From Escherichia coli (GTDB lineage: Bacteria > Pseudomonadota > Gammaproteobacteria > Enterobacterales > Enterobacteriaceae): a DNA stretch of 64,000 bases. Of this stretch, positions 3,356-64,000 are shown one piece after another. Each line of letters opens with the position of its first letter. Position 1 is the stretch's first letter. The stretch lies in the NCBI RefSeq assembly GCF_030013205.1, contig NZ_CP122648.1, one strand, 5' to 3'. The notes beneath the pieces are model-generated. The model ran no database searches. It saw only the letters and a program-made list of their open reading frames with translations, and had not been told where the DNA came from. The position numbers were made by a program, and so were the translations under genes.

Positions 3356-5195
3356 CTTTCAGGGCTTTTATCGCCGGATGTAAATCAACAGATTGTAACA
3401 GACCACCCGGCGGCGTTTTCACAAGTTGCGGACATAACCGTTCCACGTCCGCTAGCAGGGTTATGGCCTGTGCCATTGACCACTGCGCATGTTCGCTCAT
3501 CAGATTTCGTGCAATCCACTGCGCAATATTGCCAGGTTCGAATACGGACTGCTTCGCCAGGTAGCCTATCAGTTCAGGAATCAAGATTTGTAAATTTTGT
3601 TGGCGTAAGGGTAAAGGCACGGCCCTGATGGTCACATGCTGTGCATCTGACTGGAAATCAATACCCAATTCCGCCAGGGCAGACTGCGCTTTTTCTAATG
3701 CCGATTTTTCTTCGCCAGAAACTTTTAGCCGCAACGGAATAAGCAACGGCTGGGCGCAAACTGGCGCTTCACCCGGCGTCAGTTGCGCCTGACGCAGCCA
3801 ACGTTCTGCCACTGGCAAGGCTAAAAGTGAAATGTTGCCGTCGCGCTCCAGCAACGCACAGTCGGAATGAACGATAGTCAGTACCCGACCAAAACTCTGA
3901 CTGTTCGCCGCAAGTGCAGGTTCCTGCGGTTCTGGCGCTTTTGGTTTTTGCATCGGCGCGGGCGTTTGCAAAAGCTGGCGATACACTTCACCTTGCTGTT
4001 TCTGGTAACCTGGCTGCGCATTCGGCCAGGGGGCAGCCGGACGACTGCCTGAGGCGGGCGCAGGAGTGTAACGCGGAGCTACTGGCTCACGAAATGCCGG
4101 TTCAGCAAAATGATTGCGCCCCGCCGCCACGCGGTTTTCCGGGATGGCGCGCGGTGCAGGTTGTGGTTCATCGTCCAGCGGTAGCGGCGTTTCCAGTTGC
4201 TGTTGTAGCACGCTCAGCACGCCCTGATAGATAAAATCATGCACCAGACGCGACTGATGGAAACGCACTTCGTGTTTGGCAGGGTGCACGTTGACGTCCA
4301 CCTGATGTGGGTCGATCTCCAGATACAGCACAAATGCCGGTTGCTGATCGGCCCCCAGTTTGTCTTCACAGGCCTGGCGGATCGCGTGATTGATCAGGCG
4401 ATCGCGCATCATGCGACCATTCACATAGCAATACTGAATTTCCGCCAGTGCGGGCGTGGTGTGATTCGGATCTGCCACCCAGCCGCGCAGCGTAAGATCG
4501 CCGTGTTGCCATTCAATCGCCAGCGCTTGTTCGAGAAAAGCGGTACCGCAAATCGCGCCTAAGCGCCGTTCTTTTTGCCCGCCTTCCGGCACTGCGCGGT
4601 ACTGACGCACAATTTTACCGTTATGCGACAGGTTGATCGTGACGTCGAAACGCGCCAGCGCAATGCGGCGGATGATCTCATCAATGTGGTTAAATTCGGT
4701 TTTCTCGGTGCGCAGGAATTTGCGCCGCGCCGGGGTGTTGTAGAACAGATCCAGCACCTCCAGCGTCGTTCCCACAGGATGCGCCGCCGGTTTTACCGTC
4801 ACGTCCATATCGCGCCCTTCGGCATAGGCCTGCCAGGCTTCCTGCTGTTCTGCGGTACGTGAAGTGAGCGTCAGGCGGGAAACCGAACTGATACTCGCCA
4901 GAGCCTCACCGCGAAAGCCCAGGCTGATAATGGCTTCGAGATCGTCCAGAGAGGCGATTTTACTGGTGGCATGACGAGCCAGCGCCAGCGCCAGCTCATC
5001 TTTTTTGATACCGCAGCCGTTATCACGAATGCGGATAAGTTTCGCCCCACCGCGTTCGATATCAATATCGATACGCGTCGCACCTGCATCGAGGCTGTTT
5101 TCCACCAGTTCTTTGACTACCGACGCAGGTCGCTCGACCACCTCACCTGCGGCAATCTGGTTCGCCAGTTGTGGCGGTAAGACCTGAATTGGCAT
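3348..5195 (-). CDS. mutL: DNA mismatch repair protein MutL
   Basis: 615 aa from second Met ([38 protein letters not shown]), GHKL ATPase motifs. Confidence 0.95.
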
Positions 5196-10467: not shown

Positions 10468-11013
10468 TTACAGCTTGATAAAATGCTCGCGGTAGTAAGC
10501 CAGCTCCGCCACCGACTCACGGATATCATCCATCGCCTGATGCGTCCCCTGCTTGGTAAAACCATCAAGAATTGCCGGCTTCCAGCGGCGCGCCAGCTCT
10601 TTCAGTGTGCTGACATCGAGATAACGGTAGTGAAAGTAGGCTTCCAGCTCCGGCATGTATTTAAACAGGAAGCGACGATCCTGGCCGATGCTGTTACCGC
10701 AAATCGGCGATTTTCCCGCAGGCACCCACTGTTTTAAGAATTCGAGCGTTGCCAGTTCAGCTTCACGATCGCCCATTGTGCTCGCTTTCACGCGCTCCAC
10801 CAGCCCGCTGGCGGTATGGGTGCGCACGTTCCAGTCATCCATCAGCGCCAGCTGTTCATCAGACTGGTGTACTGCAATGGTCGGCCCTTCTGCCAGAATA
10901 TTCAGGTTGGCATCGGTCACCAGCGTGGCAATCTCAATAATGCGATCGCGCTCGGGATCCAGACCGGTCATCTCAAGATCGATCCAAATCAGGTTGTTTT
11001 CATTGGCACTCAT
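10468..11013 (-). CDS. orn: oligoribonuclease Orn
   Basis: 181 aa from internal Met [29 protein letters not shown] (DEDDh exonuclease motif). Confidence 0.93.
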
Positions 11014-39120: not shown

Positions 39121-39196
39121 GCCCGGATAGCTCAGTCGGTAGAGCAGGGGATTGAAAATCCCCGTGTCCTTGGTTCGATTCCGAGTCCGGGCACCA
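39121..39196 (+). tRNA. pheU: tRNA-Phe (GAA)
   Basis: GCCCGGATAGCTCAGTCGGTAGAGCAGGGGATTGAAAATCCCCGTGTCCTTGGTTCGATTCCGAGTCCGGGCACCA, 76 nt with GAA anticodon and CCA end. Confidence 0.97.
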
Positions 39197-39209
39197 AATT
39201 CATATCAAC

Positions 39210-39234
39210 GGACCTCCACGGAGGTCCGTTTTTC
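39210..39234 (+). terminator. pheU intrinsic terminator
   Basis: ggacctcc/ggaggtcc hairpin followed by GTTTTT immediately after the tRNA. Confidence 0.7.
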
Positions 39235-39393
39235 GTTTCAGAACACCATGATTTAAGTGTTCTTCCTCCAAATCAATTCTACCGAACTCAACCAAATTCT
39301 CCCCACATCAACCTCATTGTGTGGGTATAATTGCGGGTATACCCCAGTTCGACAGAATTTATACCCTCTTTAACGCATTCAGAAGGCTGAACT

Positions 39394-40656
39394 ATGGCAC
39401 TGACTGACGCAAAAATCCGGGCTGCAAAGCCCACTGACAAGGCTTATAAACTCACTGACGGGGCCGGCATGTTCCTGCTGGTTCATCCTAATGGTTCCCG
39501 TTACTGGCGTCTCCGCTATCGTATTCTGGGTAAGGAGAAGACTCTGGCACTTGGTGTGTATCCAGAAGTTTCTCTCTCCGAAGCTCGTACAAAACGGGAT
39601 GAGGCCCGAAAACTGATTTCAGAGGGGATTGACCCTTGCGAACAGAAAAGAGCTAAAAAAGTTGTCCCTGATTTACAGCTCTCTTTTGAACATATTGCAC
39701 GACGCTGGCATGCCAGTAATAAACAATGGGCACAATCACACAGCGATAAAGTACTCAAAAGCCTCGAGACACACGTTTTCCCCTTTATCGGCAACCGGGA
39801 TATCACAACACTCAGTACCCCGGACCTGCTTATCCCTGTTCGTGCTGCAGAAGCTAAACAAATTTATGAAATCGCCAGTCGTCTGCAGCAAAGAATATCT
39901 GCTGTAATGCGTTATGCCGTACAGTCTGGCATCATCAGATATAACCCGGCTCTGGATATGGCTGGTGCATTGACCACGGTAAAACGCCAGCATCGCCCTG
40001 CACTGGATCTTTCACGCCTGCCTGAACTTCTGTCGCGTATTGACGGTTATAAAGGCCAGCCTGTCACCCGACTGGCAGTTATGCTGAATTTACTGGTTTT
40101 TATTCGTTCCAGTGAACTCAGATACGCCCGCTGGTCTGAAATTGATATTGACAATGCCATGTGGACTATTCCAGCCGAACGCGAACCTCTGCCTGGCGTA
40201 AAATTCTCACACCGGGGCTCCAAGATGCGAACACCACATCTTGTGCCACTCAGCAAACAGGCTGTAGCCATACTGGCAGAACTACAGACATGGGCTGGTG
40301 AAAATGGTCTGATCTTTACGGGAGCACATGACCCGCATAAACCAATCAGTGAAAATACTGTAAATAAAGCCCTGAGGGTGATGGGGTATGACACAACCCA
40401 GGATGTCTGTGGCCATGGATTCCGTGCGATGGCATGTAGTGCGCTGATCGAATCAGGTTTGTGGTCCCGCGATGCTGTTGAACGTCAGATGAGCCATCAG
40501 GAACGTAACGGTGTACGCGCTGCGTATATCCATAAAGCCGAACATCTGGAAGAACGCCGGCTGATGCTACAGTGGTGGGCAGATTTTCTGAATGCGAACA
40601 GAGAGAAATGTATCAGTCCGTTTGATTATGCAAAGATCAACAATCCATTAAAATAG
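39394..40656 (+). CDS. P4-type tyrosine integrase
   Basis: 420-aa ORF MALTDAKIRAAKPTDKAYKLTDGAGMFLLVHPNGSRYWRLRYR with C-terminal catalytic region (HGFRAMA, Y in RAAYIH); 200 bp downstream of a tRNA gene; SD GAAGG. Confidence 0.92.
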   Translation: MALTDAKIRAAKPTDKAYKLTDGAGMFLLVHPNGSRYWRLRYRILGKEKTLALGVYPEVSLSEARTKRDEARKLISEGIDPCEQKRAKKVVPDLQLSFEHIARRWHASNKQWAQSHSDKVLKSLETHVFPFIGNRDITTLSTPDLLIPVRAAEAKQIYEIASRLQQRISAVMRYAVQSGIIRYNPALDMAGALTTVKRQHRPALDLSRLPELLSRIDGYKGQPVTRLAVMLNLLVFIRSSELRYARWSEIDIDNAMWTIPAEREPLPGVKFSHRGSKMRTPHLVPLSKQAVAILAELQTWAGENGLIFTGAHDPHKPISENTVNKALRVMGYDTTQDVCGHGFRAMACSALIESGLWSRDAVERQMSHQERNGVRAAYIHKAEHLEERRLMLQWWADFLNANREKCISPFDYAKINNPLK

Positions 40657-42385: not shown

Positions 42386-43714
42386 ATGAGCCACAGGGAA
42401 TTGTTCAGCGAATTTCTTGAAAATTTGAATCTTGACCTCAAACAGGCAAAAAAGATCAGCTATCACTATCGAAAAATAACCAAGTCATTAAATCTTGCGT
42501 TCAGAGGAACGAGTTCCCGGGTAGCAAACCGCTTGAAAGTGGGGTCAGTAGGCAGACATACCGCAATAAAAGGCATATCCGATCTGGATATGCTTTATAT
42601 TATGCCCCCCAATCAGTATGAATATTATAACCGTAAGGATAATGGTCAGTCTGCATTGCTTACAGATGTCAGAAACATTCTGGCGGAAGAATATCCTGAC
42701 CAGACTGTGAAAAAGGACAGACTGGTTGTTCAGATCATCTTTAAAAACTTTTATGTCGAGGTTCAACCTGTATTCAGACAGGATGATGACAGCTTTAAAT
42801 TCCCTGAAAGCTATAATGGAGGAGCATGGCGCATTACAAAACCTCTTCACGAAAAGGCGGCCATGACCGCATTTTCGCGAGATAAATCCAATAATCTGCG
42901 CAAGCTGTGTAAAATGATCAGAGCCTGGAAGAACCTGCATGGCGTCAATATGGGTGGCTTACTGATAGACACACTAGCGTATCGCTTTCTTTCATCAACA
43001 TCAGATTATGACAATACCGGAAATGGCAGCCTGGGAGCCCTCGCCAGAGACTTTTTTGAATATCTGTCAAATGAGGAGAGAAAGGAAAGGTATCTCGCGT
43101 TAGGCAGTAATCAGCATGTACGTGTTAAATCTCCCTGGTTTGGCCGGGCAGCGAAACACGCGTATGAATTATGTTGTGATGCCTTAGACGCTGAGGGGGC
43201 TGCCAGTGAAAATGACCGCTGGCGCAAAGTGTTCGGACGAGCCTTCCCCAGACGTAAAGTGGGTATTATGGAAGCCCGTCTTGGTCTGGAATCGCATGCG
43301 GCAGATGCTGTTCCCTGGACCGATACCGAAGAGTTTATAGAGGATAAATATCCGGTGGATATCAGGTACTCACTCAACCTTGACTGTACCGTAACCCAGG
43401 ATGGTTTCCCTCCCAGAAGCCTGAGGGAGATGCTTACCAGAAGATTCCGCCTCTCCGCTCGAAAATCTCTCCTTTTCCGGGCAGACTTGACAGAAATGGA
43501 GGCAGAGGAACCCTACACCGTTATGTGGAAGGTACTGAACGTGGGTGACGAAGCACGCAGAAGAAATATGATCCGGGGACAAATCGTTTCGGACGGCGGC
43601 TACTGTACGAAGAAAGAAACTACCGACTTCCGCGGAGATCACATGGTAGAATGCTATGTGATAAAAAATGAGGTTGTGGTTGCCCGGGCCCAGATTGAAG
43701 TTCCCATAAGCTGA
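42386..43714 (+). CDS. polymerase-beta-superfamily nucleotidyltransferase, SMODS/CD-NTase-like (candidate signalling nucleotide or oligonucleotide synthase)
   Basis: 442-aa ORF with SD AAAGGAA; NTase signature G-S-x10-D-L-D (GSVGRHTAIKGISDLD) near the N-terminus; stop overlaps the SD of the next gene. Confidence 0.6.
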   Translation: MSHRELFSEFLENLNLDLKQAKKISYHYRKITKSLNLAFRGTSSRVANRLKVGSVGRHTAIKGISDLDMLYIMPPNQYEYYNRKDNGQSALLTDVRNILAEEYPDQTVKKDRLVVQIIFKNFYVEVQPVFRQDDDSFKFPESYNGGAWRITKPLHEKAAMTAFSRDKSNNLRKLCKMIRAWKNLHGVNMGGLLIDTLAYRFLSSTSDYDNTGNGSLGALARDFFEYLSNEERKERYLALGSNQHVRVKSPWFGRAAKHAYELCCDALDAEGAASENDRWRKVFGRAFPRRKVGIMEARLGLESHAADAVPWTDTEEFIEDKYPVDIRYSLNLDCTVTQDGFPPRSLREMLTRRFRLSARKSLLFRADLTEMEAEEPYTVMWKVLNVGDEARRRNMIRGQIVSDGGYCTKKETTDFRGDHMVECYVIKNEVVVARAQIEVPIS

Positions 43715-43721
43715 GGTTTTT

Positions 43722-44297
43722 ATGACGCAATCAGAGATGCTGAAATTAATCGCCCGACATGGTTATAACGTTGGATTTGGCGCTAAGAAAAACTTTGCCA
43801 CCTATGATCTGATTTGTAAGGCATCCGGTTGGATTAGCTTTATTTCTCTTGCTGTCGGTGTGTTCGCCCTTTTTATTCCTGAGCTGGCCACAAACGTCAT
43901 TTCCGCGATATTAATTATATTTGGTGTTGCTACAATGTACATTCAGTTTTATGACTCGGAAAAGCAGAGTTATGAAAGTGCGGGGATTGAGCAGACCAAA
44001 ATTTTTAATGAACTTGAAGTCATCTACCGCAACGTAAAAAGCGATGCAAACTTTGACTATCAGCGTACACAACAATCCATCGACGCTATCATGTCCCGGT
44101 TTTACGGCACGGTCATCAGCAAACAGATCTTCGGAAGTAACTGGTACGCACATTATAAATTTTACTGTGAATTTGAAAAAGCATGGGTTGAAGAAGAGCT
44201 GAACCTGACACTGAAGGACAAAATCCCGCTTTCGCTCTGCTTTCTCGCCGGTCTGGCGATCATTTTTACTATAGCTGTCATCTGGAAAACGCCCTGA
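43722..44297 (+). CDS. 2-TM membrane protein, SLATT-like candidate effector
   Basis: 191-aa ORF starting 8 nt after the NTase stop; two adjacent hydrophobic helices (ISFISLAVGVFALFIPELATNVISAILIIFGVATMYI) plus a C-terminal hydrophobic segment. Confidence 0.6.
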   Translation: MTQSEMLKLIARHGYNVGFGAKKNFATYDLICKASGWISFISLAVGVFALFIPELATNVISAILIIFGVATMYIQFYDSEKQSYESAGIEQTKIFNELEVIYRNVKSDANFDYQRTQQSIDAIMSRFYGTVISKQIFGSNWYAHYKFYCEFEKAWVEEELNLTLKDKIPLSLCFLAGLAIIFTIAVIWKTP

Positions 44298-44848: not shown

Positions 44849-45574
44849 TTATGATGTACATAATACCTTAAAATTATCAACTAGCTGAGCATTAACCTCC
44901 ATCTGACTAATCCCCCATAATGCGGCTAACTGTTTCTCTGCAATCCCACTATCCCATGGCATTAGTGGGTCATTACGAAACTTAGCAAATGGCCCATCTG
45001 TTTCTGTAAGAATGCGTGATTTGGGTATTTTCAAAACTAAGGCCTTACCCTTTATTGTATCGAGCATAGCAGGCCCCACTGAGAACCAGCATCCTAAATC
45101 AATTGCCCTTTCAAGCTGCTTAGGTGTTCCAGTGAACCAATGCAATATTGCCACCCCATCGATATTTTCAATCTCATCAAGCACCGCTGATGCACTTCCC
45201 CGACTATGGATAGTCATAATCTTGCCACCAGCCCGATTTACACTGTTGAGAATGTGTCGGAACACTTTCAATTGAATATCCCAATGTTCTTTAAATCCCT
45301 GTCCACCATCAAGCCCTATTTCCCCTACATACTTAGTTTCCGAAAGCAATGAATCAAACAGGTCTAACTCATGCGATCTTTGATGCGCGATTTGAGGATG
45401 TAGCCCAAGAGCAGTTCGGATTCGTTGACTTTCTTTAGCCAATAAAGAAGTACCATGCCATGCTTTAGGTGTTGTTGTCACCGACAGAATATAAGTCCCT
45501 CGACGTTTACTTTCTTCAGCCACGAGGTCTGGCCGAGGATATAAGTCTAGATGACAGTGCATATCGATGCTCAT
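44849..45574 (-). CDS. qatD: QatD-like TatD-family metal-dependent hydrolase
   Basis: 241-aa ORF beginning MSIDMHCHLDLYP (TatD HxH motif); ATGA overlap with upstream qatC. Confidence 0.8.
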   Translation of the reverse strand: MSIDMHCHLDLYPRPDLVAEESKRRGTYILSVTTTPKAWHGTSLLAKESQRIRTALGLHPQIAHQRSHELDLFDSLLSETKYVGEIGLDGGQGFKEHWDIQLKVFRHILNSVNRAGGKIMTIHSRGSASAVLDEIENIDGVAILHWFTGTPKQLERAIDLGCWFSVGPAMLDTIKGKALVLKIPKSRILTETDGPFAKFRNDPLMPWDSGIAEKQLAALWGISQMEVNAQLVDNFKVLCTS

Positions 45575-46890
45575 ACTATGTTCTCACTCAGTAAATAGCT
45601 TTCAACCTCATCCAGGCCATCCTTAAATACTTGCTTGAAATTATCAAATTCTGCCGTAGGCAAAGGGCCACTTTTGGCAATCCATGTACCTATTTTCAAA
45701 GTCGATTTCTGCGTGATCGCAATCCTAAGGGCGATCAGGTCGTCCCTGCGATCTATTTCATTCATTACTTTAGCTAAGGACTGGAAAATATATTCAACAT
45801 CTCTACTAATTCCCCCTGCATGAAGTGATGCTCGTCGAATGATACACGGTATACATACCCCACATTGCTGCCCCATTCGTTTCCAATGACTGCAGGATAC
45901 TGTACTTTCCACAATTTTAGATAAGAGCTGCTTATTTGAACATTCGGAGATCATTTTTCCTTTTGTCTTAAACTGATATGGATTGATTATTTGACAAGAA
46001 ATACCGAGCGCATCAAAGATCTTTTGTATGCTCGTAATAAAATGTGGATGTGTTGTTCGTGTGCTCAGCGAACCTATCCGCCGTGGAGTAAGTGGTGCAT
46101 TTAATGAGATAAATCCATTTTCAGGTACGAACAAATCAATCTTTTCTTGTTGAGATATCTCTTGTACGGCACAAGCACCTACGGCCGCAAAGGCAAGAAA
46201 ATTGAGGCTACGAGTTCGCATCGTAATATCAGTCACGCCTTGATAAATGTGTGGGTCAGCATTAATCTCAAAGCGCGAAAATTGGCCACTTAATTTTTCA
46301 GCAATCTGATCTTGACGAGACTTATCCCCCTTATAAGCATGACTAACCAAAAGTGGAGCGCGCCCTGCAGCCAGAAGATCTATTGCACCAATAGCTGAAT
46401 CCAGACCTCCTGAAAATAGGCTGACACAGTCAAGCCCTTTTAGCTTAATCAGACGATGCCTTGAATGCTGGCTATAAGGCTCTGGCGGTGCATAACCATC
46501 GTCACAAAATTCGAAATCCCAGATGTCTCCACTAAGAAAATGCAAAGCACTCTCAAGTTCTTTCTTTAGACTAATCCATCTGGATGGTTCATGAAGGGGG
46601 AGTCGTAACGACAATTGGCGGGTCCAACCATCCTCGGAACTTTCACGCTGAACGAAAGTATCTGCTGCAGTTACTGCTAATGCAACACTCAGAAAATCCA
46701 TGACCTTAGCTGGAAGCTGTACTCCCAAACGTCTGATCCGATCAATCGCAGGATTCCCGATAACAGATATATCTCCGCGCCTCTGACCACTTAATCCATA
46801 TAGCTGAACAGGTAACACTTTCTCACTTGCTGGCGGCAAATGGTGATGTTTATGATGGAAAACTAATTGTGTCACTGGTATGCCTCCCAT
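45571..46890 (-). CDS. qatC: QatC-like QueC-family PP-loop ATPase
   Basis: 439-aa ORF with PP-loop SGGLDS (DCVSLFSGGLDSAIGAIDLL); overlaps qatB by 19 nt. Confidence 0.8.
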   Translation of the reverse strand: MGGIPVTQLVFHHKHHHLPPASEKVLPVQLYGLSGQRRGDISVIGNPAIDRIRRLGVQLPAKVMDFLSVALAVTAADTFVQRESSEDGWTRQLSLRLPLHEPSRWISLKKELESALHFLSGDIWDFEFCDDGYAPPEPYSQHSRHRLIKLKGLDCVSLFSGGLDSAIGAIDLLAAGRAPLLVSHAYKGDKSRQDQIAEKLSGQFSRFEINADPHIYQGVTDITMRTRSLNFLAFAAVGACAVQEISQQEKIDLFVPENGFISLNAPLTPRRIGSLSTRTTHPHFITSIQKIFDALGISCQIINPYQFKTKGKMISECSNKQLLSKIVESTVSCSHWKRMGQQCGVCIPCIIRRASLHAGGISRDVEYIFQSLAKVMNEIDRRDDLIALRIAITQKSTLKIGTWIAKSGPLPTAEFDNFKQVFKDGLDEVESYLLSENIV

Positions 46891-47624
46891 TCTTGCCAGG
46901 CCTCAATAATGGCCTGACGTTCAATTTTTACCATTTGGTTTCGTGTGAACGATCTTATGTTACCGGCAAGTTTTGGTGCCATATGTTTATCAACAACAAC
47001 TTTAATCAATTCCCGGAGTTCAATTTCTGCATGAATTGCCTTTGAAGGTGTATCTGCTTTGTTCCATGCCCTATTAGAATCCATTACCATCTGAAGGAAA
47101 ATACTTTCCGCTAGATAACCAATCATTGTGTCAACAATCACACCATCAGTTATTTTTTGAGGATCGAAAATTTCTACGCCATCAAGAGCCTCCACTAAAG
47201 CATGGTTCATGGCCGCACAGATCTTTTCTGAGTCACCATCCTGTGATGTTAAAGCTTGAGCAATAGTTGATATTGCTATTTCGCATGGAAGGCCTGCCAA
47301 ACTGCCCAAATCGATGCTTGGTTCTCCGGGAGCCGAAGGCATTCCCACTAAAGCCCCAAATAATTCGGCCCCAGCTTGCGTGACACTCCCTAATCGCCGA
47401 GCAGCGTTACTGCTCCCTCCGGAGGCTTTTCGCGCGTAGTGCCCTATGGCTTTTCTGAAATCTGCTCGATTTCCATTTGATACCGCATTTCCCAACGATT
47501 CTCGAAATGGCGCAAACCTCCTTTCTTGCGGCGAGGGTAACGGTTGCTGTGGCTGATCATCAGCCCATGGTGGAACCAGCGGAGAGCCACCTCCTGGACC
47601 TTTACTTGATTGTGATGTTCCCAT
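46872..47624 (-). CDS. qatB: QatB-like protein (no recognisable domain)
   Basis: 250-aa ORF whose ATG overlaps the qatA stop (TAATG); position between KAP NTPase and QueC-like genes. Confidence 0.7.
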   Translation of the reverse strand: MGTSQSSKGPGGGSPLVPPWADDQPQQPLPSPQERRFAPFRESLGNAVSNGNRADFRKAIGHYARKASGGSSNAARRLGSVTQAGAELFGALVGMPSAPGEPSIDLGSLAGLPCEIAISTIAQALTSQDGDSEKICAAMNHALVEALDGVEIFDPQKITDGVIVDTMIGYLAESIFLQMVMDSNRAWNKADTPSKAIHAEIELRELIKVVVDKHMAPKLAGNIRSFTRNQMVKIERQAIIEAWQEWEAYQ

Positions 47625-49408
47625 TAAGCGTCCTTATTCCATTGTTCATCTTTTAATGCTGCAGTCATCCACGCTGGTCGTTTCATCCCCAACTGTAATT
47701 CCTGTAGATAACGAATTAATATGCTGGCTGCATCTGTTGAGTAGCGGGCCAACAGACATGCGCCGGAAAAGCCTCTGGGCTTACGATCCCAATCTGATAC
47801 CTGCCGTAACTGGTTAATTAAACCTTCCATTACAGGTATTTGCTCCTCACGAGGAAGTGCTTTCAAAAGGTTTTCTGCTGTAGGAGAACTAGTGTTTTTC
47901 AATTCAATTAGTGCATTTAGTACTTCCCGTCCAGATGGCGATAAACCAACCACATATGCACCTATTGGCATAGTTTCTCGGGACAGATATATGGCGGCCC
48001 TTAAGTCAATCCCACCAAGACGAGGTTCAAGTTGGGCCCATTGACTGATGAAAGATTTAGTCGTTGGACTATCAGTCCATGTCTTTGGTGCATCAGTAGG
48101 TATTTGACCGCCATTATCGTCAAGCTGTTTAAGTATCTGGGGAACACCTTGTTCAATATCCACGAGATGATATAAATCAGCGGTGCCATCCACTCCAACA
48201 CAGCGTTCAAAAATTACTAGCTTAGTAATAATTGCTTCATCCAAAGGCATTGCTCGTCGCTTCGCAATTTGAGATCGCATTTTCACAACATTCAACAAGC
48301 GTTTAACGATCCTGGGATTACCATGAATAATTGGAGAGTTGGCTAAAATGGGAGCAATACGGTCAGCACGCGCAAACGCCAGCGCGAGGTTGCTATCATC
48401 CGCTTCACCAGTCATTTTTAAGGCCTCCTGACGTGAGATTGGTTCATCTTTCCAGGATTGCTGTAACGCCTTCTCTAAGCCCTCACGGAGCATAGTTATT
48501 TTTTCGCCTTCTAAGCCATGTTCAATGGCATAAAGCATGAACAGATACGAACGGATCTCACGGACCCCAGCCTTAGGCACCCGAATAGGAACCTGGATTA
48601 GCTTATCCAGATAATCTATTTGATGGCGCTGTGATGCCCCTTTGAAGTAATCAGCCACAGAAGAGCGAATCATGTCCTCATCTGCTGCAATAATAAAGGC
48701 TGTATTAGTCAAGAAAAGGAATAGCCTGATAGCTTCAAGTGTATGGATAGCATTGGCAGGGAGACAGCGGTCTAGGTTATCTATTACCACAATGAGTGGC
48801 TTTCCAAGTTCTTCTAGAATTTCCCCATATTCCTTACGAAAGGCATCAATCTGCTGAGGGGGGCTTTTTTTTGTTTGTGGTTTAATCAAACCACAAGCAG
48901 TTTCTTTACCTTCTTTAGCTATATTGCCTAAAGCCTCATACTCTTCCTGACTCTGGATGCCATCGGTGATATTTCTTAATGCACCAATCCCCCTAGAAAG
49001 CAAACCGCCAGTAGGTAATCCTGCCATTAAAGCTGTACCCTCAGCTAGTAATCCCATAGCTCTAAAACCATCAACTCGACTAAGGAGTCTCTTAGTTTTT
49101 GATATAAGGGTAGAATTACCTTCAGCAGCTTTTGTCAATTCTGTAGCGATGACTTCAAGAAGTGCGGCACGGGCGTCGTCGTACCCCTGATAGAGCCAAG
49201 AGTCAAAATTGATAACAATCCAATCTTTGTCGTCTTGCTCAAGTTTTTGCTCTATCAGTTTTAACAGAGAGGATTTACCTGCCCCCCAGTTTCCAAAAAT
49301 TCCGATAGATACTGGTAACATATCTTTCGTGGTAAGTACATCCACGGCTAACTGAGATACTTCACCAAAATTTAGGTAGTCTTCTGATGACTCTTTGTCT
49401 GACCACAT
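47624..49408 (-). CDS. qatA: QatA-like KAP-family P-loop NTPase
   Basis: 594-aa ORF with Walker A GNWGAGKSS near the N-terminus and Walker B-like VVIDNLDRC; SD AAGGA upstream of ATG at 49408. Confidence 0.8.
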   Translation of the reverse strand: MWSDKESSEDYLNFGEVSQLAVDVLTTKDMLPVSIGIFGNWGAGKSSLLKLIEQKLEQDDKDWIVINFDSWLYQGYDDARAALLEVIATELTKAAEGNSTLISKTKRLLSRVDGFRAMGLLAEGTALMAGLPTGGLLSRGIGALRNITDGIQSQEEYEALGNIAKEGKETACGLIKPQTKKSPPQQIDAFRKEYGEILEELGKPLIVVIDNLDRCLPANAIHTLEAIRLFLFLTNTAFIIAADEDMIRSSVADYFKGASQRHQIDYLDKLIQVPIRVPKAGVREIRSYLFMLYAIEHGLEGEKITMLREGLEKALQQSWKDEPISRQEALKMTGEADDSNLALAFARADRIAPILANSPIIHGNPRIVKRLLNVVKMRSQIAKRRAMPLDEAIITKLVIFERCVGVDGTADLYHLVDIEQGVPQILKQLDDNGGQIPTDAPKTWTDSPTTKSFISQWAQLEPRLGGIDLRAAIYLSRETMPIGAYVVGLSPSGREVLNALIELKNTSSPTAENLLKALPREEQIPVMEGLINQLRQVSDWDRKPRGFSGACLLARYSTDAASILIRYLQELQLGMKRPAWMTAALKDEQWNKDA

Positions 49409-49539: not shown

Positions 49540-50742
49540 CTATTTTTTAAAGAATGAAATAAGCTTTCTTATCCCAGTCCATATTTTCCTATCAGAATCC
49601 GAAGGGTTAAATTCGCTCTTGTCAAAATCAGCAACCTCAGCAACCTCAGCAACCTCAGCAACCTCAGCAACCTCAGCAACCTCAGCAACCTCAGCAACCT
49701 CAGCAACCTCAGCAACCTCAGCAACCTCAGCAACCTCAGCAACCTCAGCAACCTCAGCAAGGTTTATTCTATTTTGATGAGCTGTCAAATGTTCTTTGTT
49801 AATTTCATCTCTAATTAGCTGTTCTTTTTCTATGCTGTAGTTTTTGTCATTATAAGTCACATCAAAATCATCTAAGAAAACGATATAAATCAATTTAAAA
49901 AAACTAGTCTTAAATAAAAAACTATCGCACTCATCAGGAAAACCAAAAAAGAAAACATTAAGATATTTGGTTGCTTTGCGCTTGTCTTTTAGTCCATTAT
50001 AATACTTATTTGCTTCTGCTCTTTGTTTTTCATACTCACTACAGAAAAAACTCTTTTTACTTTCATCCCATTCTGAAGCATCAATTTCAAGTTTATATGC
50101 TTGTTTGGTACCTTTCTTTCTGGCTAAAAAAGTAAGGTAATATCTATTCGAATTTATCTCCAGCCGTATATTAGATTGAATTTTACCAAAATAAATTGCT
50201 GGCTTATTATATCTAATTCCTTCTTTATAGATGATTAGTTGAAAAGTATCTTTATAAGTTCTAACTCCATAAGGGGGAATTGATAATGGTTCATAGAGAT
50301 TATCTCCATTAATGTAGTAGTCTACTACCGGTTTGATGCTTGAAGATGACACAGGGTGTACTTTACCTCCCAAATCTTTTTCATCATCTCGCGTCTGTTT
50401 GATAATTCTTCTGCCAGAAGAGTCGTAATTTCTTTCAGACACATCAAGTTTCAGAAGAGATATAGCTAATGCCGGTGGTGAATTATGCTTTTTATTATTC
50501 TTTGAGTTACACTTATTTTTACTCTTAGGATCATGAATCTTACATCCCGGCCTATGAGTCTCTTTATATCGAAAGTATGATTGATTTAAATTTATTTCTT
50601 TGAAGCTACATGGAGTAGCGGGTATCCTACATTTGTCATACGGGCATTCAAAAGTGGTTGTTCGTATATAAAGATCATCCATTTCCCGAAGATCATGACC
50701 ATGAACAATTTCACCACTAACAGAATCTCTTGCTATTGTCAC
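49540..50742 (-). CDS. uncharacterised cysteine-rich protein with C-terminal (AEV)n repeat
   Basis: 400-aa ORF from GTG at 50742 preceded by a perfect SD (AAGGAG, 5-nt spacer); N-terminal CPYDKC...C...C cysteine cluster; AT-rich; ends 131 bp upstream of qatA on the same strand. Confidence 0.7.
   Translation of the reverse strand: MTIARDSVSGEIVHGHDLREMDDLYIRTTTFECPYDKCRIPATPCSFKEINLNQSYFRYKETHRPGCKIHDPKSKNKCNSKNNKKHNSPPALAISLLKLDVSERNYDSSGRRIIKQTRDDEKDLGGKVHPVSSSSIKPVVDYYINGDNLYEPLSIPPYGVRTYKDTFQLIIYKEGIRYNKPAIYFGKIQSNIRLEINSNRYYLTFLARKKGTKQAYKLEIDASEWDESKKSFFCSEYEKQRAEANKYYNGLKDKRKATKYLNVFFFGFPDECDSFLFKTSFFKLIYIVFLDDFDVTYNDKNYSIEKEQLIRDEINKEHLTAHQNRINLAEVAEVAEVAEVAEVAEVAEVAEVAEVAEVAEVAEVAEVAEVADFDKSEFNPSDSDRKIWTGIRKLISFFKK
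49629..49760. repeat. perfect 9-bp tandem repeat, about 14.7 copies (unit AGCAACCTC on + strand)
   Basis: Uninterrupted identical units read directly; in-frame within the 400-aa ORF, encoding Ala-Glu-Val repeats. Confidence 0.97.
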
Positions 50743-57712: not shown

Positions 57713-59287
57713 TTATGACCGAAAGAATTGCTCTTTCCATTCTCTCAGTTTCTGGCTGTGATAGCCCTGCTCGTAACACGCCTTCAACTCAGAGAACGTG
57801 ATATTGTTTACTCTGGAAAGCAGGACATAGGTTGTTTTACCTTCTCTCTCAAAGGAAAGCTTTAACTGAGACGCAAGAATGTTCAACAGTGCGTTCAGTT
57901 TTTTTCTGTTTCTGAAACGCCCCGGGCCACACTGGAGAATATAATTTTTCCTGACACGAGGCGGGCATTCTCCGCGGCACTCCTCAATGAGCCAGTCGAG
58001 CAGCTCCTGTGCGTCCTGCAGCTGCAGTTCAGATTCATCAGGTAACGCAAATAATTTTTTATATTCATCTGTGTACCACGAACTTATTACGACAGCAGAC
58101 GTCATGATATCGGCAGTAATTTTCCCTTCCCCCTGACTGAAATACTGCAATAATGCAGCAATTCTCGCAATGTTTTCTGTTTTTTTTGAAACATGTCCCC
58201 GAAACGCACTTAACGGACCGGAAGGAGATAAATCCTGCTCAAGAACATTATAGTGCTCAATAAATATTTTTTGCGCTTCAGGCGAAAAATGCAGACAATA
58301 CCGTTCATCCTTACTGGATTTTTCAATACTGGCTCTGGCCAGTTCCATTAATCGTTCATGAAATGCCGTTAACGATCCTCCCGGGGTCACAGCTCCGTTA
58401 ATAAAGCGTTTCCCCTGCGTGCTTGCAGGTTTACTGATAAGGCAACGGGCAAGAAAACCACTGTCTCTGGCAACAGCACCTTTTCGCTCCATATATCGGT
58501 CAAAAAGACCGGGTTGCACCATGAGGGATAACGTCATTCTGGCATTTTCAATCATCTGTTCGGGTTCATTCTTTCTGTCCACAGACAACACTGAGCCATC
58601 CCACATTTTGTTAATAAAAGGCAACTCAGACAGGGTATATCCATCAAATATAATACCAGCTTCATCTGACATAATACCAACTGAACGCCATTTACCACAA
58701 AGCTGATTCTTAATTGCCGCAGTCGTGGCATCATTAACAATGAATTTATACCTCACAGGTTCTTCCGCACTGTTTTTCTGAAGTACTTCCAGTTGTCTGA
58801 GGGTTTCTGACTCATCCGCGCCTTTGCGGAGTTCTTTATTCAGTTTTGACAACAATGCTTTTTTCTGAGCCTTTAAAAGCTCTTCCTTGTTTTTCCAGAC
58901 AGCCAGTTCACTTTTGTATCTGGAATATAACTGCATCTCCTGCTGGTACAGGGGCTTCATTAATAATTTGTCCACTGCGGTTTTTCGTTCTCCGGACTCG
59001 GCAAGCGTCAGGAAAAAAAGAGAAACCGGCCCCCGCAGTGTATTCAGTCTGCAGACATCAATCAGATTCTGGCAGACAAGTGAAACAGCGCCCAGTGCAG
59101 ATGCTGCCACAAGCCCAAGGGGAGCCTGCGTAATTTGCTGAGCTTCAATAACGGCATCACGAATGAGTGGAGGCAGCGAACTCAGGGGGAACTCATCACA
59201 AGGCTGACCGAATGACATAGTAACCTCACTACATACAGATATAAAAGCACTGCAATTTTGGCTATTAATAGCAAAAATAGCAGTCAA
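57713..59287 (-). CDS. YfjI-like protein of CP4-57-type prophages (DUF3987-like)
   Basis: 524-aa ORF; family assignment from recall, start codon uncertain (alternative Met 23 codons in). Confidence 0.55.
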   Translation of the reverse strand: MTAIFAINSQNCSAFISVCSEVTMSFGQPCDEFPLSSLPPLIRDAVIEAQQITQAPLGLVAASALGAVSLVCQNLIDVCRLNTLRGPVSLFFLTLAESGERKTAVDKLLMKPLYQQEMQLYSRYKSELAVWKNKEELLKAQKKALLSKLNKELRKGADESETLRQLEVLQKNSAEEPVRYKFIVNDATTAAIKNQLCGKWRSVGIMSDEAGIIFDGYTLSELPFINKMWDGSVLSVDRKNEPEQMIENARMTLSLMVQPGLFDRYMERKGAVARDSGFLARCLISKPASTQGKRFINGAVTPGGSLTAFHERLMELARASIEKSSKDERYCLHFSPEAQKIFIEHYNVLEQDLSPSGPLSAFRGHVSKKTENIARIAALLQYFSQGEGKITADIMTSAVVISSWYTDEYKKLFALPDESELQLQDAQELLDWLIEECRGECPPRVRKNYILQCGPGRFRNRKKLNALLNILASQLKLSFEREGKTTYVLLSRVNNITFSELKACYEQGYHSQKLREWKEQFFRS

Positions 59288-60402
59288 ATCAATATGAGGT
59301 AAAAATTTTTGTTGATTTAATGGTTAAATAATAACCACAGTGTGTTTTGCTGCTGAAGAAAGACAAAATGAATCTGTGTGTCCCCTCCTTCCCTTCGGAG
59401 CATATCTACTGTTCAAATTTTACACAATCACGTACAAACAAAAAGCATCATCCCGGGTATTGCAGATACCGGTTTCCTGCCGGGAAGAATCATAAACAGA
59501 AAACCCGGAATAACACCTTCAGAAAGCGACTTCCCTCCTGAAGAATAATAAAGAAGACGATAATTCCTGTCCTGAATTCGATATTTCATGGATATGACGC
59601 CATTTTTATAAATGACAAAAAAGCATTTAATGCTGACACATCAGGAAAAACAAAATAATACCCCCCTGCCGATACAGATAAAACACACCAATTTTCTTTG
59701 AATGCTCCCGCATAATTGTCAGACAGTGATAAAAATGGGTTATGACAATCTTTCTTCAACAAAAACCTGTCTTCTGTTTTTTTACATCAGCATCCTGCTT
59801 AAATTAAACGTAAACGAGCACAGCATTTCTGTACCAGAACTAAAAATCAGCTATTATTCAGCACCCTCAATCAATAAAATCTCAACAATATTATCCGGAA
59901 CAGCATGGTACCTCTATCAAAGGTTTTTAACAGGACAATTAACATTACTGAACAGCCTTCCTGCAGAACCACTGCAAATATAAAACCAGGGCGCAGGATA
60001 AATAATCACACCCTGAAAAATGCTGTCACACAAAAAAAAATTAATCACTGCACATAATCCGGAAGCGAAATACCAAACAACCCGGTATCAACAGGTATCA
60101 TTGCGTGCGCCACTCTTATAAAAAACACACAGCAGAAGTAAGATAATTATAAACGTAATTTTAATATCTCTCTGCCCCCCACAAAAAAACACTGAAAAAA
60201 AAATACTCACATCAGTAAACATGAGCACACCTGATAATCAGGCTGTCAGAGGAATGATATTTCCCTTTTACGGGATAGTCAGCCCGCCATTGAACAATGT
60301 TCAAATCGATTCAAAATAATTTCAGACAGATATTATCGTTGTGAGTCCCCCGCCACCTTTCCGGTACGCGGGATTTTGTCTTTTTTCACCGGGAATACAT
60401 GT

Positions 60403-61275
60403 ATGAATCCGTCTGATGCCATTGAGGCAATTGAAAAACCGCTCTCCTCCCTGCCTTATTCGCTTTCCCGTCACATCCTGGAACATCTGCGTAAACTCAC
60501 CAGCCACGAACCCATGATTGGCATTATGGGGAAAAGCGGGGCCGGTAAATCCTCACTCTGTAATGCGCTGTTTCAGGGGGAGGTCACCCCGGTCAGTGAT
60601 GTTCACGCCGGCACCCGGGAAGTGCGGCGCTTCCGTCTGAGTGGCCACGGTCACAGCATGATTATCACTGACCTGCCCGGGGTGGGCGAGAGCCGGGACA
60701 GGGATGCAGAGTATGAAGCCCTGTACCGTGACATTCTGCCTGAACTTGACCTGGTACTGTGGCTGATTAAAGCCGATGACCGTGCCCTGTCTGTGGATGA
60801 GTATTTCTGGCGACACATCCTGCACCGGGGACATCAGCGGGTACTGTTTGTGGTGACGCAGGCCGATAAAACGGAGCCCTGCCATGAATGGGATATGGCC
60901 GGTATTCAGCCTTCTCCCGCACAGGCACAGAACATTCGCGAAAAAACGGAGGCGGTATTCCGTCTGTTCCGGCCCGTACATCCGGTTGTGGCCGTATCGG
61001 CCCGCACCGGCTGGGAACTGGATACGCTGGTCAGCGCGCTCATGACAGCACTTCCCGACCATGCCGCCAGTCCCCTGATGACCCGCCTGCAGGACGAGCT
61101 GTGCACGGAATCTGTCCGGGGGCAGGCCCGTGAACAGTTTACCGGTGCGGTGGACCGGATATTTGACACGGCGGAGAGCGTCTGTGTTGCCTCTGTTGCA
61201 CGCACGGTTCTGCGTGCCGTCCGTGACACGGTGGTCTCTGTTGCCCGCGCGGTATGGAACTGGATTTTCTTCTGA
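60403..61275 (+). CDS. YeeP/YkfA/YfjP-family GTPase
   Basis: Start at MNPSDAIEAIEKPLSSLPYSLSRHILEHLR; P-loop GIMGKSGAGKSSLCNALF, DLPGVGE G3 motif; immediately upstream of antigen 43 as in CP4-44. Confidence 0.8.
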   Translation: MNPSDAIEAIEKPLSSLPYSLSRHILEHLRKLTSHEPMIGIMGKSGAGKSSLCNALFQGEVTPVSDVHAGTREVRRFRLSGHGHSMIITDLPGVGESRDRDAEYEALYRDILPELDLVLWLIKADDRALSVDEYFWRHILHRGHQRVLFVVTQADKTEPCHEWDMAGIQPSPAQAQNIREKTEAVFRLFRPVHPVVAVSARTGWELDTLVSALMTALPDHAASPLMTRLQDELCTESVRGQAREQFTGAVDRIFDTAESVCVASVARTVLRAVRDTVVSVARAVWNWIFF

Positions 61276-61393
61276 ACAGTCTGCCAGGGAAATGCCTGAT
61301 TACATTACGTTAACCAACTGAAAACATGACACAAACACCTCATACTCCTCCTGTTTCTCTTGCATGACTGCCTCGTCATTAATAGAATAAAAC

Positions 61394-61429
61394 GATCGAT
61401 AAAACAGGTATCGATCGCCATCATCGATC
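61394..61429 (+). promoter_or_regulatory. antigen 43 phase-variation switch (three GATC Dam sites in the OxyR-binding region)
   Basis: GATC at 61394, 61413 and 61426, each within CGATCG, about 220 bp upstream of the flu start codon. Confidence 0.75.
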
Positions 61430-61646
61430 GTTTATAGTGGTTAATGACCTGCGAAAAGGCAGTTGATTCTCTTCATCATGCAGAACGGAATTGCACACAA
61501 CGGACTGATGCTTCTCTGGCGGATGAGAGAGGGGAAGCATTTATGTCCGAGAAAAACCACTTTATCTGACCATGCTGTTTTGTACCTGCCGGTATCCACA
61601 TTTGTGGGTACCGGCTTTTTTATTCACCCTCTGTAAGGAAAAGCTG

Positions 61647-64000
61647 ATGAAACGACATCTGAACACCAGCTACAGGCTGGTATGGAATCACATTACGGGC
61701 ACCCTGGTGGTGGCTTCCGAACTGGCCCGCTCACGGGGGAAACGTACTGGCGTGGCGCTGGCGCTGTCTCTTGCCACCGCCACTTCAGTCCCGGCCCTGG
61801 CTGCTGACAGTGTTGTACAGGCAGGGGAAATCGTGAACGGCGGGACACTGGTAAATCATGACAACCAGATTGTCTTCGGTACGACCAACGGAATGACCAT
61901 CAGTACCGGGCTGGAGTATGGGCCGGATAACGAGGCCAATACCGGCGGGCAATGGGTACAGGATGGCGGCACAGCCAGTAATACCACCATCAGCAACGGC
62001 GGGCTCCAGTTTGTAGGTGCCGGGGGAAAGGCTACAGACACAATAATCAATGAAGGAGGCGGACAAAGTCTGAAGGGACTGGCACTGAACACCACGCTGA
62101 ATGGTGGCGAGCAGTGGATGCATGAAGGTGCGATAGCCACAGGAACCGTCATTAATGATAAGGGCTGGCAGGTCGTCAAACCCGGCGCAGTGGCAACAGA
62201 CACCGTTGTGAATACCGGCGCAGAAGGAGGACCGGATGCAGAAAATGGTGATACCGGGCAGTTTGTTCGCGGAAATGCCGTACGTACCACTATCAATAAA
62301 AATGGTCGTCAGATTGTGGTAGCCACCGGAGTGGCAAACACCACGGTGGTTTATGCCGGCGGCGACCAGACGGTACATGGCCACGCACTGGATACCACGC
62401 TGAATGGCGGTAACCAGTATGTGCACAACGGCGGTACAACGTCTGACACTGTTGTGAACAGTGACGGCTGGCAGATTATCAAGGAAGGTGGTCTGGCGGA
62501 TTTCACCACCGTTAACCAGAAAGGCAAACTGCAGGTGAACGCCGGTGGTACAGCCACGAATGTCACCCTGAAGCAGGGCGGCGCACTGGTCACCAGTACT
62601 GCTGCAACGGTTCTTGGCAGCAACCGTCTGGGGAATTTCACGGTGGAAAACGGTAAGGCTGACGGCGTTGTTCTGGAGTCCGGCGGTCGCCTGGATGTAC
62701 TGGAGGGCCATTCAGCGCAGAATACCCTGGTGGATGACGGCGGTACCCTGGCAGTGTCTGCCGGTGGTAAGGCAACAGATGTCACCATGACATCCGGTGG
62801 TGCCCTGATTGCAGACAGTGGTGCCACTGTTGAGGGGACCAATGCCAGCGGTAAGTTCAGTATTGATGGCATATCCGGTCAGGCCAGCGGCCTGCTGCTG
62901 GAAAATGGCGGCAGCTTTACGGTTAATGCCGGGGGACAGGCCGGTAACACCACTGTCGGATATCGTGGAACACTGACGCTGGCTGCCGGGGGAAGTCTGA
63001 GTGGCAGAACACAGCTCAGTAAAGGTGCCAGCATGGTACTGAATGGCGATGTGGTCAGTACCGGCGATATTGTTAACGCAGGGGAGATTCGCTTTGATAA
63101 TCAGACAACACCGGATGCCGCGCTGAGCCGTGCTGTTGCAAAAAGTAACTCCCCGGTAACGTTCCATAAACTGACCACCAGTAACCTCACCGGCCAGGGC
63201 GGCACCATCAATATGCGTGTCAGCCTTGATGGCAGTAATGCCTCAGACCAGCTGGTAATTAATGGTGGTCAGGCAACCGGCAAAACCTGGCTTGCGTTCA
63301 CAAATGTCGGAAACAGCAATCTCGGGGTGGCAACCTCCGGACAGGGTATCAGGGTTGTGGATGCACAGAATGGCGCCACCACAGAAGAAGGTGCGTTTGC
63401 CCTGAGTCGCCCGCTTCAGGCCGGCGCCTTTAACTACACCCTGAACCGTGACAGCGATGAAGACTGGTACCTGCGCAGTGAAAATACTTATCGTGCTGAA
63501 GTCCCCCTGTATGCCTCCATGCTGACACAGGCAATGGACTATGACCGGATTCTGGCAGGCTCCCGCAGCCATCAGACCGGTGTAAGCGGTGAAAATAACA
63601 GCGTCCGTCTCAGCATTCAGGGCGGTCATCTCGGGCACGATAACAACGGTGGTATTGCCCGTGGGGCCACGCCGGAAAGCAGCGGCAGCTATGGCTTCGT
63701 CCGTCTGGAGGGTGACCTGCTCAGAACAGAGGTTGCCGGTATGTCTCTGACGACAGGGGTGTATGGTGCTGCAGGCCATTCTTCCGTTGAAGTTAAGGAT
63801 GATGACGGCTCCCGCGCCGGCACGGTCCGGGATGATGCCGGCAGCCTGGGCGGATACCTGAATCTGGTACACACATCCTCCGGCCTGTGGGCTGACATTG
63901 TGGCACAGGGAACCCGCCACAGCATGAAAGCGTCATCGGACAATAACGACTTCCGCGCCCGGGGCTGGGGCTGGCTGGGCTCACTGGAAACCGGTCTGCC
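61647..64000 (+). CDS. flu: antigen 43 autotransporter adhesin (N-terminal 784 codons; continues beyond window)
   Basis: ATG at 61647 with SD AAGGAA; MKRHLNTSYRLVWNHITGTLVVASELARSRGKR extended signal peptide, repetitive beta-helical passenger (GG/TxT repeats), autochaperone region RAEVPLYASMLTQAMDYDR; no stop before window end. Confidence 0.92.
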   Translation, partial: MKRHLNTSYRLVWNHITGTLVVASELARSRGKRTGVALALSLATATSVPALAADSVVQAGEIVNGGTLVNHDNQIVFGTTNGMTISTGLEYGPDNEANTGGQWVQDGGTASNTTISNGGLQFVGAGGKATDTIINEGGGQSLKGLALNTTLNGGEQWMHEGAIATGTVINDKGWQVVKPGAVATDTVVNTGAEGGPDAENGDTGQFVRGNAVRTTINKNGRQIVVATGVANTTVVYAGGDQTVHGHALDTTLNGGNQYVHNGGTTSDTVVNSDGWQIIKEGGLADFTTVNQKGKLQVNAGGTATNVTLKQGGALVTSTAATVLGSNRLGNFTVENGKADGVVLESGGRLDVLEGHSAQNTLVDDGGTLAVSAGGKATDVTMTSGGALIADSGATVEGTNASGKFSIDGISGQASGLLLENGGSFTVNAGGQAGNTTVGYRGTLTLAAGGSLSGRTQLSKGASMVLNGDVVSTGDIVNAGEIRFDNQTTPDAALSRAVAKSNSPVTFHKLTTSNLTGQGGTINMRVSLDGSNASDQLVINGGQATGKTWLAFTNVGNSNLGVATSGQGIRVVDAQNGATTEEGAFALSRPLQAGAFNYTLNRDSDEDWYLRSENTYRAEVPLYASMLTQAMDYDRILAGSRSHQTGVSGENNSVRLSIQGGHLGHDNNGGIARGATPESSGSYGFVRLEGDLLRTEVAGMSLTTGVYGAAGHSSVEVKDDDGSRAGTVRDDAGSLGGYLNLVHTSSGLWADIVAQGTRHSMKASSDNNDFRARGWGWLGSLETGL

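Follow-up and report, generated by a model that had tools for sequence, protein, structure and literature searches.

A probable agn43-type Dam/OxyR switch region on a tRNA-Phe island of Escherichia coli

Antigen 43 (Ag43) mediates autoaggregation and biofilm formation, and its on/off switching generates mixed populations. The locus described here, an agn43 (flu) gene carried on a genomic island of E. coli, raises the question of whether the DNA upstream of the gene is the phase switch governed by Dam methylation and OxyR binding that the first-pass annotation had taken it for. To answer this, positions, gene identities, homology, conservation, consensus scores and an Rfam match were computed for the window, by which we mean the whole 64-kb stretch of DNA that was analysed. 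On this evidence we consider it likely, with a probability of roughly 0.8, that the region is a working classical Dam/OxyR phase switch of the complete agn43 type that is commonest in E. coli.

The agn43 locus and the island that carries it

The genes and island elements on which the reading of the locus depends are the following:

39121-39196, + strand: tRNA-Phe (pheU position), the island insertion site (ARAGORN)
39394-40656, + strand: island integrase, a tyrosine recombinase (Pfam Arm-DNA-bind_3, Phage_int_M and Phage_integrase)
60403-61275, + strand: intact YeeP-like GTPase gene, 290 aa (Pfam MMR_HSR1, 9.6e-15)
61647-64000, + strand: agn43/flu, encoding an Ag43/Cah family autotransporter adhesin; first 784 codons, open to the window end

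The intergenic interval under study is exactly 61276-61646, since the stop codon of the GTPase gene ends at 61275 and the flu ATG occupies 61647-61649. The product of the downstream gene scores 1567 bits, above the cutoff of 1200, with the Ag43/Cah equivalog model NCBIfam NF033177, of which it covers positions 1-784 of 948, and contains the Pfam domains ESPR, AIDA and AC_1 (autochaperone), the C-terminal beta-domain lying beyond the window. The interval was thus rightly assigned in the first-pass annotation as the agn43 regulatory region. The end of flu lies outside the window; the gene is probably intact, judging from the near-identical record of strain K_EC180 (2847 bp). Directly upstream lies the MMR_HSR1 GTPase gene, annotated as 'GTPase family protein' in the 100%-identical K_EC180 record; the gene is intact in the window, whereas yeeP at the same position in K-12 is a pseudogene. 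The position of flu directly 3' of a YeeP-like GTPase gene, as in CP4-44, had been remarked before and agrees with the K-12 order yeeP-isrC-flu. On its other side, the GTPase gene borders, together with the gene for a DUF3987 (YfjI-family) protein at 57713-59287 (- strand), a gene-poor and AT-rich stretch of approximately 1.1 kb (59288-60402) that holds short ORFs only.

That this flu copy is island-borne, as previously proposed, is confirmed by the tRNA-Phe gene and the integrase gene next to it, and the yeeP-flu module on this tRNA-linked island has the gene order of K-12 CP4-44. The window island is inserted at tRNA-Phe near cadC, whereas K-12 flu lies at the CP4-44 site (a cryptic prophage). 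The first 25 kb of the window are E. coli core chromosome with approximately 99% identity (mutL, frdA and their neighbours), and positions 41365-64000 are 99.9% identical to strain K_EC180. The K_EC180 annotation gives the order dsbD-dicD-tRNA-Phe-integrase, with cadC beyond the island, and the far end of the island in that strain, beside cadC, carries a 156-bp repeat of the tRNA-proximal sequence at window positions 39174-39329.

The agn43 island is also a defence island because it carries a CBASS-type module and QatABCD. The CBASS-type module consists of two genes at 42386-44297 (+ strand), the first for a SMODS oligonucleotide cyclase bearing an AGS-C sensor domain and the second for a SLATT_6 two-transmembrane effector, and the QatABCD anti-phage system at 44849-49408 (- strand) is complete, with PADLOC scores of 1133 bits for QatA, 433 for QatB, 467 for QatC and 322 for QatD. 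Adjoining the Qat genes is an ORF at 49540-50742 (- strand) whose 400-aa product has no Pfam match. Inside this ORF, a 9-bp unit, TCAGCAACC, is repeated in tandem at 49628-49760 (14.8 copies, 100% identity) and encodes (AEV)x14 near the C-terminus. The repeat is an in-frame copy-number polymorphism, because the window is approximately 90 bp (10 units) longer here than K_EC180.

Promoter, GATC triplet and proposed OxyR half-sites

Between the GTPase gene and flu, we assigned the following elements:

61276-61359: upstream intergenic DNA without an assigned element, unrelated in sequence to K-12 in the in-register comparison
61360-61365, + strand: putative -35 hexamer TTGCAT (3/6), within the conserved TCTCTTG block, read from the sequence
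61382-61396: proposed OxyR half-site 1, ATAGAATAAAACGAT, 8/10, overlapping the -10 hexamer and GATC-I
61383-61388, + strand: -10 hexamer TAGAAT (5/6), separated from the -35 by a 17-bp spacer
61394-61397: GATC-I, Dam target and approximate transcription start (from the K-12 isrC start)
61394-61621, + strand: IsrC/IS102-type leader RNA, approximately 228 nt, the 5' part of the 253-nt flu leader
61413-61416: GATC-II, Dam target
61414-61428: proposed OxyR half-site 2, ATCGCCATCATCGAT, 7/10, bounded by GATC-II and GATC-III
61426-61429: GATC-III, Dam target
61588-61621, + strand: intrinsic terminator (terminator scan) with a 12-bp stem, a 4-nt loop and T6, the hairpin spanning 61588-61615
61635-61639, + strand: Shine-Dalgarno sequence AAGGA, 7 nt before the ATG, read from the sequence and invariant in 10 alleles

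We identified the promoter by its homology with that of K-12. All 10 alleles compared share the TCTCTTG block unchanged, and the window and K-12 have the same -10 block, TAATAGAATAAAACGATC. In the K-12 annotation, isrC begins with the G of GATC-I, 6 bp past the -10, and from this we infer a transcription start at approximately 61394. A generic promoter scan of the region called no promoter; the scan requires at least 4/6 matches per hexamer and missed this one because its -35 has only 3/6.

The first-pass annotation had placed three GATCs within 36 bp upstream of the flu ATG (61647), at 61394, 61413 and 61426, and these positions are exact; no other GATC occurs between 61000 and 62000. GATC occurs 260 times in the whole window, and in three places three sites fall within 36 bp. 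The other two clusters, at 4380-4403 and 10956-10984, lie in the core-chromosome part and have a spacing unlike that of agn43, and their number fits chance. In first-order Markov simulations of 64 kb the mean number of such clusters was 0.96, with at least one in 57% of the simulations, and GATC clustering alone, as a bare statistic, is within chance. The specific feature is the exact 0/+19/+32 geometry and not the cluster as such. This spacing has only one instance in the window, with a chance expectation of approximately 0.004 per window (calculated by hand from the density of 260/64000), and it is the same as that of agn43 in K-12 MG1655 (5318, 5337 and 5350 of record L001). The triplet sits at the homologous position, 6 bp after the -10 block that is identical to that of K-12. 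Among 18 alleles drawn from across the identity range, 16 keep it exactly.

Two natural alleles illustrate how the triplet can be lost. In E. coli PT62, from a pigeon (L022, about 300-350), GATC-I is changed to AATC and the -10 to TAGAGT, which leaves two Dam targets. At the cah locus of E. coli OkiPb01715 (L023, about 403-450), a slipped 13-bp deletion between direct repeats (ATCGATCGTTTAT) has fused GATC-II with GATC-III and destroyed OxyR half-site 2, and this cah promoter is predicted to be locked, probably ON. The window agn43 copy has neither the PT62-type change in GATC-I nor the OkiPb01715-type deletion.

The switch regions of the window and K-12 were compared without gaps and anchored on GATC-I; a MAFFT alignment mis-registered the GATC block, setting K-12 GATC-II against window GATC-III, and was set aside. 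Both sequences have TCTCTTG at the -35, the -10 block through GATC-I, TATCGATCG at GATC-II, ATCGATCG at GATC-III, and the stretch from the terminator through the start codon, whereas everything between these shared blocks differs. Half-site 1 is identical in the two and half-site 2 keeps the same ATCG...ATCGAT frame, and the 17 bp between them are cgataaaacaggtatcg in the window and caatatctattttatcg in K-12. The two also agree in the terminator stem and in the ribosome-binding region, the only differences being one loop base and, between the terminator and the Shine-Dalgarno sequence, an indel of 2 nt. In the middle, the leaders are unrelated, and upstream of the TCTCTTG block the in-register comparison finds no conservation.

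In a megablast search with the 371-bp interval, 6405 places were matched in 4017 of 5426 complete E. coli genomes, mostly with 90-99% identity, K-12-like strains matching over the last 64 bp or so only. We then took a census of the 65-bp cores in the same 5426 genomes. The core type of the window was found at 4626 places in 3230 genomes (approximately 60%) and that of K-12 at 1328 places in 1238 genomes (approximately 23%); the exact core variant of the window occurs in 26 records. By this census, the window copy is the common form of the switch (hereafter the majority type) and the laboratory form is in the minority. Among 100,044 species-representative genomes, the strict core pattern was found in one E. 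coli-like fragment only, in a Collinsella metagenome-assembled genome (MAG). This contig ('Collinsella sp.', JAIJJM010000733.1, 1560 bp; L011) is 92% identical to window positions 61002-61594, carries the end of yeeP and the agn43 switch, its similarity breaking off within the terminator hairpin; it stems almost certainly from E. coli and was assigned to an actinobacterial MAG in error, and an insertion or rearrangement may have occurred at its terminator.

The similarity of the OxyR site to that of K-12, on which the first-pass annotation had made its reading depend, holds for one arrangement of the site and fails for another. Scored in the K-12 register against the classical contiguous (Toledano) consensus, ATAGnTnnnAnCTAT-N7-ATAGnTnnnAnCTAT, in which the half-sites are 7 bp apart, the window reaches 9/20 and K-12 14/20. 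The window score is low because the central CTAT is replaced by AACA and the promoter-proximal half-site is gone, and all sampled majority-type alleles score 9-10/20; with the same contiguous scoring, established OxyR promoters reach 16 (oxyR/oxyS), 16 (ahpC), 14 (katG) and 14 (dps) of 20. The part that is kept is the extended arrangement, in which the half-sites are 17 bp apart and their centres therefore 32 bp apart. In this arrangement the window reaches 15/20, more than at any other position in the 64 kb, and K-12 16/20; the 16 sampled alleles with the complete triplet, K-12 included, all score 15-16/20. K-12 has five OxyR recognition elements in register and thereby offers both arrangements, whereas the majority type, including the window, lacks the central element and offers the extended arrangement only. 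In the extended arrangement every GATC falls on a four-base recognition element, the fourth element being the ATAG that overlaps the -10 hexamer, and half-site 1 is one of only 17 half-sites of at least 8/10 in the window.

The 17-bp spacer was picked after inspection of the data, from spacers of 4-21 bp of which 17 bp was best at the agn43 site. A score of 15/20 with a 17-bp spacer arose somewhere in 9 of 60 random 64-kb sequences, and one of at least 15/20 with any spacer of 4-21 bp in 52 of 60. Because the consensus is this degenerate, the score was not used as proof by itself and stands for compatibility with OxyR binding; the case for the site is made by position, homology and conservation pattern together. 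As to the last, among 12 distinct site sequences the variable columns comprise 2 of the 20 specified by the consensus, 6 of the 10 unspecified half-site columns and 9 of the 17 spacer columns. Substitutions thus appear to avoid the consensus columns (Fisher p=0.007, and p=0.03 without the GATC columns), in tests that overstate independence because the sampled alleles are mutually related. The spacing itself has precedents: 32 bp between centres is canonical for reduced OxyR, as in opvAB with half-sites at -148/-116 and -75/-43 (PMC4856963), and the gtr half-sites likewise have the reduced-OxyR spacing (PMC2909390). Both reduced and oxidised OxyR bind agn43 (PMC2909390), and its control is independent of the OxyR oxidation state (PMC4856963, PMC2909390).

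A different outcome would follow if the switch had degenerated in this allele. OxyR would then bind too weakly, because the central element is missing and half-site 2 departs from the consensus at position 6 (T to C), the GATCs would always be methylated and the promoter would be constitutively ON or switch very rarely. This would agree with the contiguous score (9/20 against 14/20 in K-12), with the half-site 2 of the window allele, which alone among the sampled alleles carries this C and scores 7/10 against 8/10 in every other one, and with PT62 and OkiPb01715 as natural examples of such a change (AATC at GATC-I and the 13-bp deletion, respectively). However, the central element is absent from the whole majority type, that is, from 4626 places in 3230 genomes; in this type the half-sites and the three GATCs are conserved, which is unexpected for decaying DNA; and the extended site, at 15/20, is within the 14-16/20 range of validated sites. 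Degeneration is therefore an improbable account of this region, and a working Dam/OxyR switch is the reading that we prefer.

The leader RNA and its terminator

The interval 61276-61646 also contains an IsrC-type leader and its terminator, which were absent from the first-pass annotation. Rfam family RF00124 (IS102/IsrC) matches at 61392-61628 (+ strand) with 68.2 bits against a gathering score of 46 and over the full model (1-206 of 206). The annotated isrC gene of K-12 begins with the G of GATC-I and extends to the T-run of the terminator hairpin, so that the small RNA would correspond to the flu leader as far as the terminator. This leader has a length of 253 nt in the window and 222 nt in K-12, with predicted terminated products of approximately 228 nt and 195 nt, and the terminator ends 25 nt before the flu ATG. 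The predicted RNA of the window shares with IsrC the 5' end at GATC-I and the terminator and matches it over the full length, whereas the central part aligns poorly. Among 10 alleles the terminator stem is invariant in all, K-12 included, and the sequence from the terminator to the ATG is nearly so, whereas the middle of the leader is variable. The function of IsrC was described as 'totally unknown' in 2011 (PMC3175480), and the RNA has been labelled 'flu gene attenuation' (PMC5811629).

We considered a leader peptide and dropped the idea because the small leader ORFs (41-57 aa) are not conserved, being broken in one allele (L009) and absent in K-12. One of these ORFs, of 52 aa (MQNGIAHNGL...; 61478-61636, + strand), crosses the terminator hairpin, and its TAA (61634-61636) overlaps the flu Shine-Dalgarno sequence. 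Seven majority-type alleles, that of the window among them, keep it intact; in the same two as above it is broken or absent. This ORF has no obvious ribosome-binding site and is probably not translated, and its position is suggestive of attenuation. A search for an RfaH ops element in the leader found none.

A further possibility is that the conserved ATCGAT palindromes exert their main effect in the leader/IsrC transcript, where they would form a 5' hairpin with a role in stability or termination, the GATCs being incidental to this structure. The first hairpin of the Rfam IS102 model falls on the palindromes of GATC-II and GATC-III, the minimum-energy fold pairs the GATC-I and GATC-II regions, and the leader folds better than its shuffled versions (z = -4.05). 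The two folds conflict, however, over which palindromes pair; the stems are invariant, so that no covariation in the 10 alleles speaks for or against them; most of half-site 1 precedes the transcription start and cannot be RNA; and the mechanism established for K-12 acts at the DNA level, with GATC mutants reported to abolish switching. Action mainly through RNA is thus very unlikely. That the GATC cluster is a chance occurrence without regulatory meaning, as could be argued from the frequency of such clusters (about one per 64 kb, and two others in this window), is already refuted by homology and conservation, since the same geometry stands at the corresponding position of the K-12 promoter and 16 of the 18 diverged alleles have kept it.

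The proposed switch and its relation to known systems

In the Dam/OxyR switch that we prefer, a sigma-70 promoter (TTGCAT, 17 bp, TAGAAT) would drive transcription from approximately 61394. In the OFF state, an OxyR tetramer in its reduced-form geometry would occupy the two 15-bp half-sites at 61382-61396 and 61414-61428. Since it would cover the -10, the start site and all three GATCs, RNA polymerase would be blocked and Dam kept off. In the ON state, the three GATCs would be methylated by Dam, OxyR would be unable to bind and transcription would proceed. Both states would be heritable, and a flip would be possible in the hemimethylated period after replication. Transcripts would then cross the 253-nt leader, some ending at the terminator at 61588-61621 to give an IsrC-like RNA of approximately 228 nt, and on those that read through Ag43 would be translated, beginning with the ATG at 61647. 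Of this scheme, we infer the transcription start, the binding of OxyR and how methylation affects it, the switching, and the termination of only a part of the transcripts. Neither oxyR nor dam lies in the window; each was found in 5425 of the 5426 complete E. coli genomes.

The Dam/OxyR mechanism has been established at the DNA level in K-12 (summarised in PMC2909390). The published experiments on the agn43 switch that we found concern K-12-type sequence and none concerns the allele type of the window; a literature search on phase variation of agn43a and agn43b turned up nothing on regulation, another on termination in the leader found no relevant work, and ST131 and O111 methylome papers treat Ag43 generally. 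The genome paper of enteroaggregative E. coli (EAEC) 042 describes promoters with three similarly spaced GATCs in both agn43 allelic groups and infers Dam/OxyR phase variation from them, citing the review of van der Woude and Henderson (2008) (PMC2808357). Because of this published inference, and because sequences identical to the whole interval exist in public genomes, the window switch can be regarded as already known. Altogether, the agn43 switch in the window is of an ordinary, well-known type and is intact on the tRNA-Phe island. With an intact switch on an island-borne copy, experimenters should expect ON and OFF subpopulations and control for them.

The cores of K-12 and the majority type differ exactly at the element that separates the oxidised and reduced modes of OxyR binding, and this may limit generalisation from K-12. 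In the literature that we searched, the loss of this central element (contiguous, oxidised-type) from the majority type was not found stated. With the extended arrangement only, the majority type is predicted to differ from K-12 in the binding of oxidised OxyR, which is a modest lead. A stronger version, which we regard as unlikely, would have the K-12 model allele atypical and oxidised OxyR unable to hold the majority-type site, with the result that oxidative stress biases switching to ON. If this were true, repression would be released by oxidative stress in the post-replication period in most natural E. coli, and Ag43 phase variation would be tied to oxidative stress in a way hidden from K-12 experiments, in which control is independent of the oxidation state.

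Similar use of OxyR and Dam is known from Salmonella gtr (phage P22) and opvAB, where GATCs are overlapped by OxyR half-sites with a centre-to-centre distance of 32 bp, like the proposed pair in the window. In gtr, moreover, pairs of GATCs lie 13 bp apart inside one half-site, as do GATC-II and GATC-III of the window (PMC2909390). The Salmonella systems differ from agn43 in having three or four half-sites upstream of the promoter, whereas the window has one proposed site over the -10 and the start, and in that OxyR activates, or both activates and represses, whereas at agn43 it only represses.
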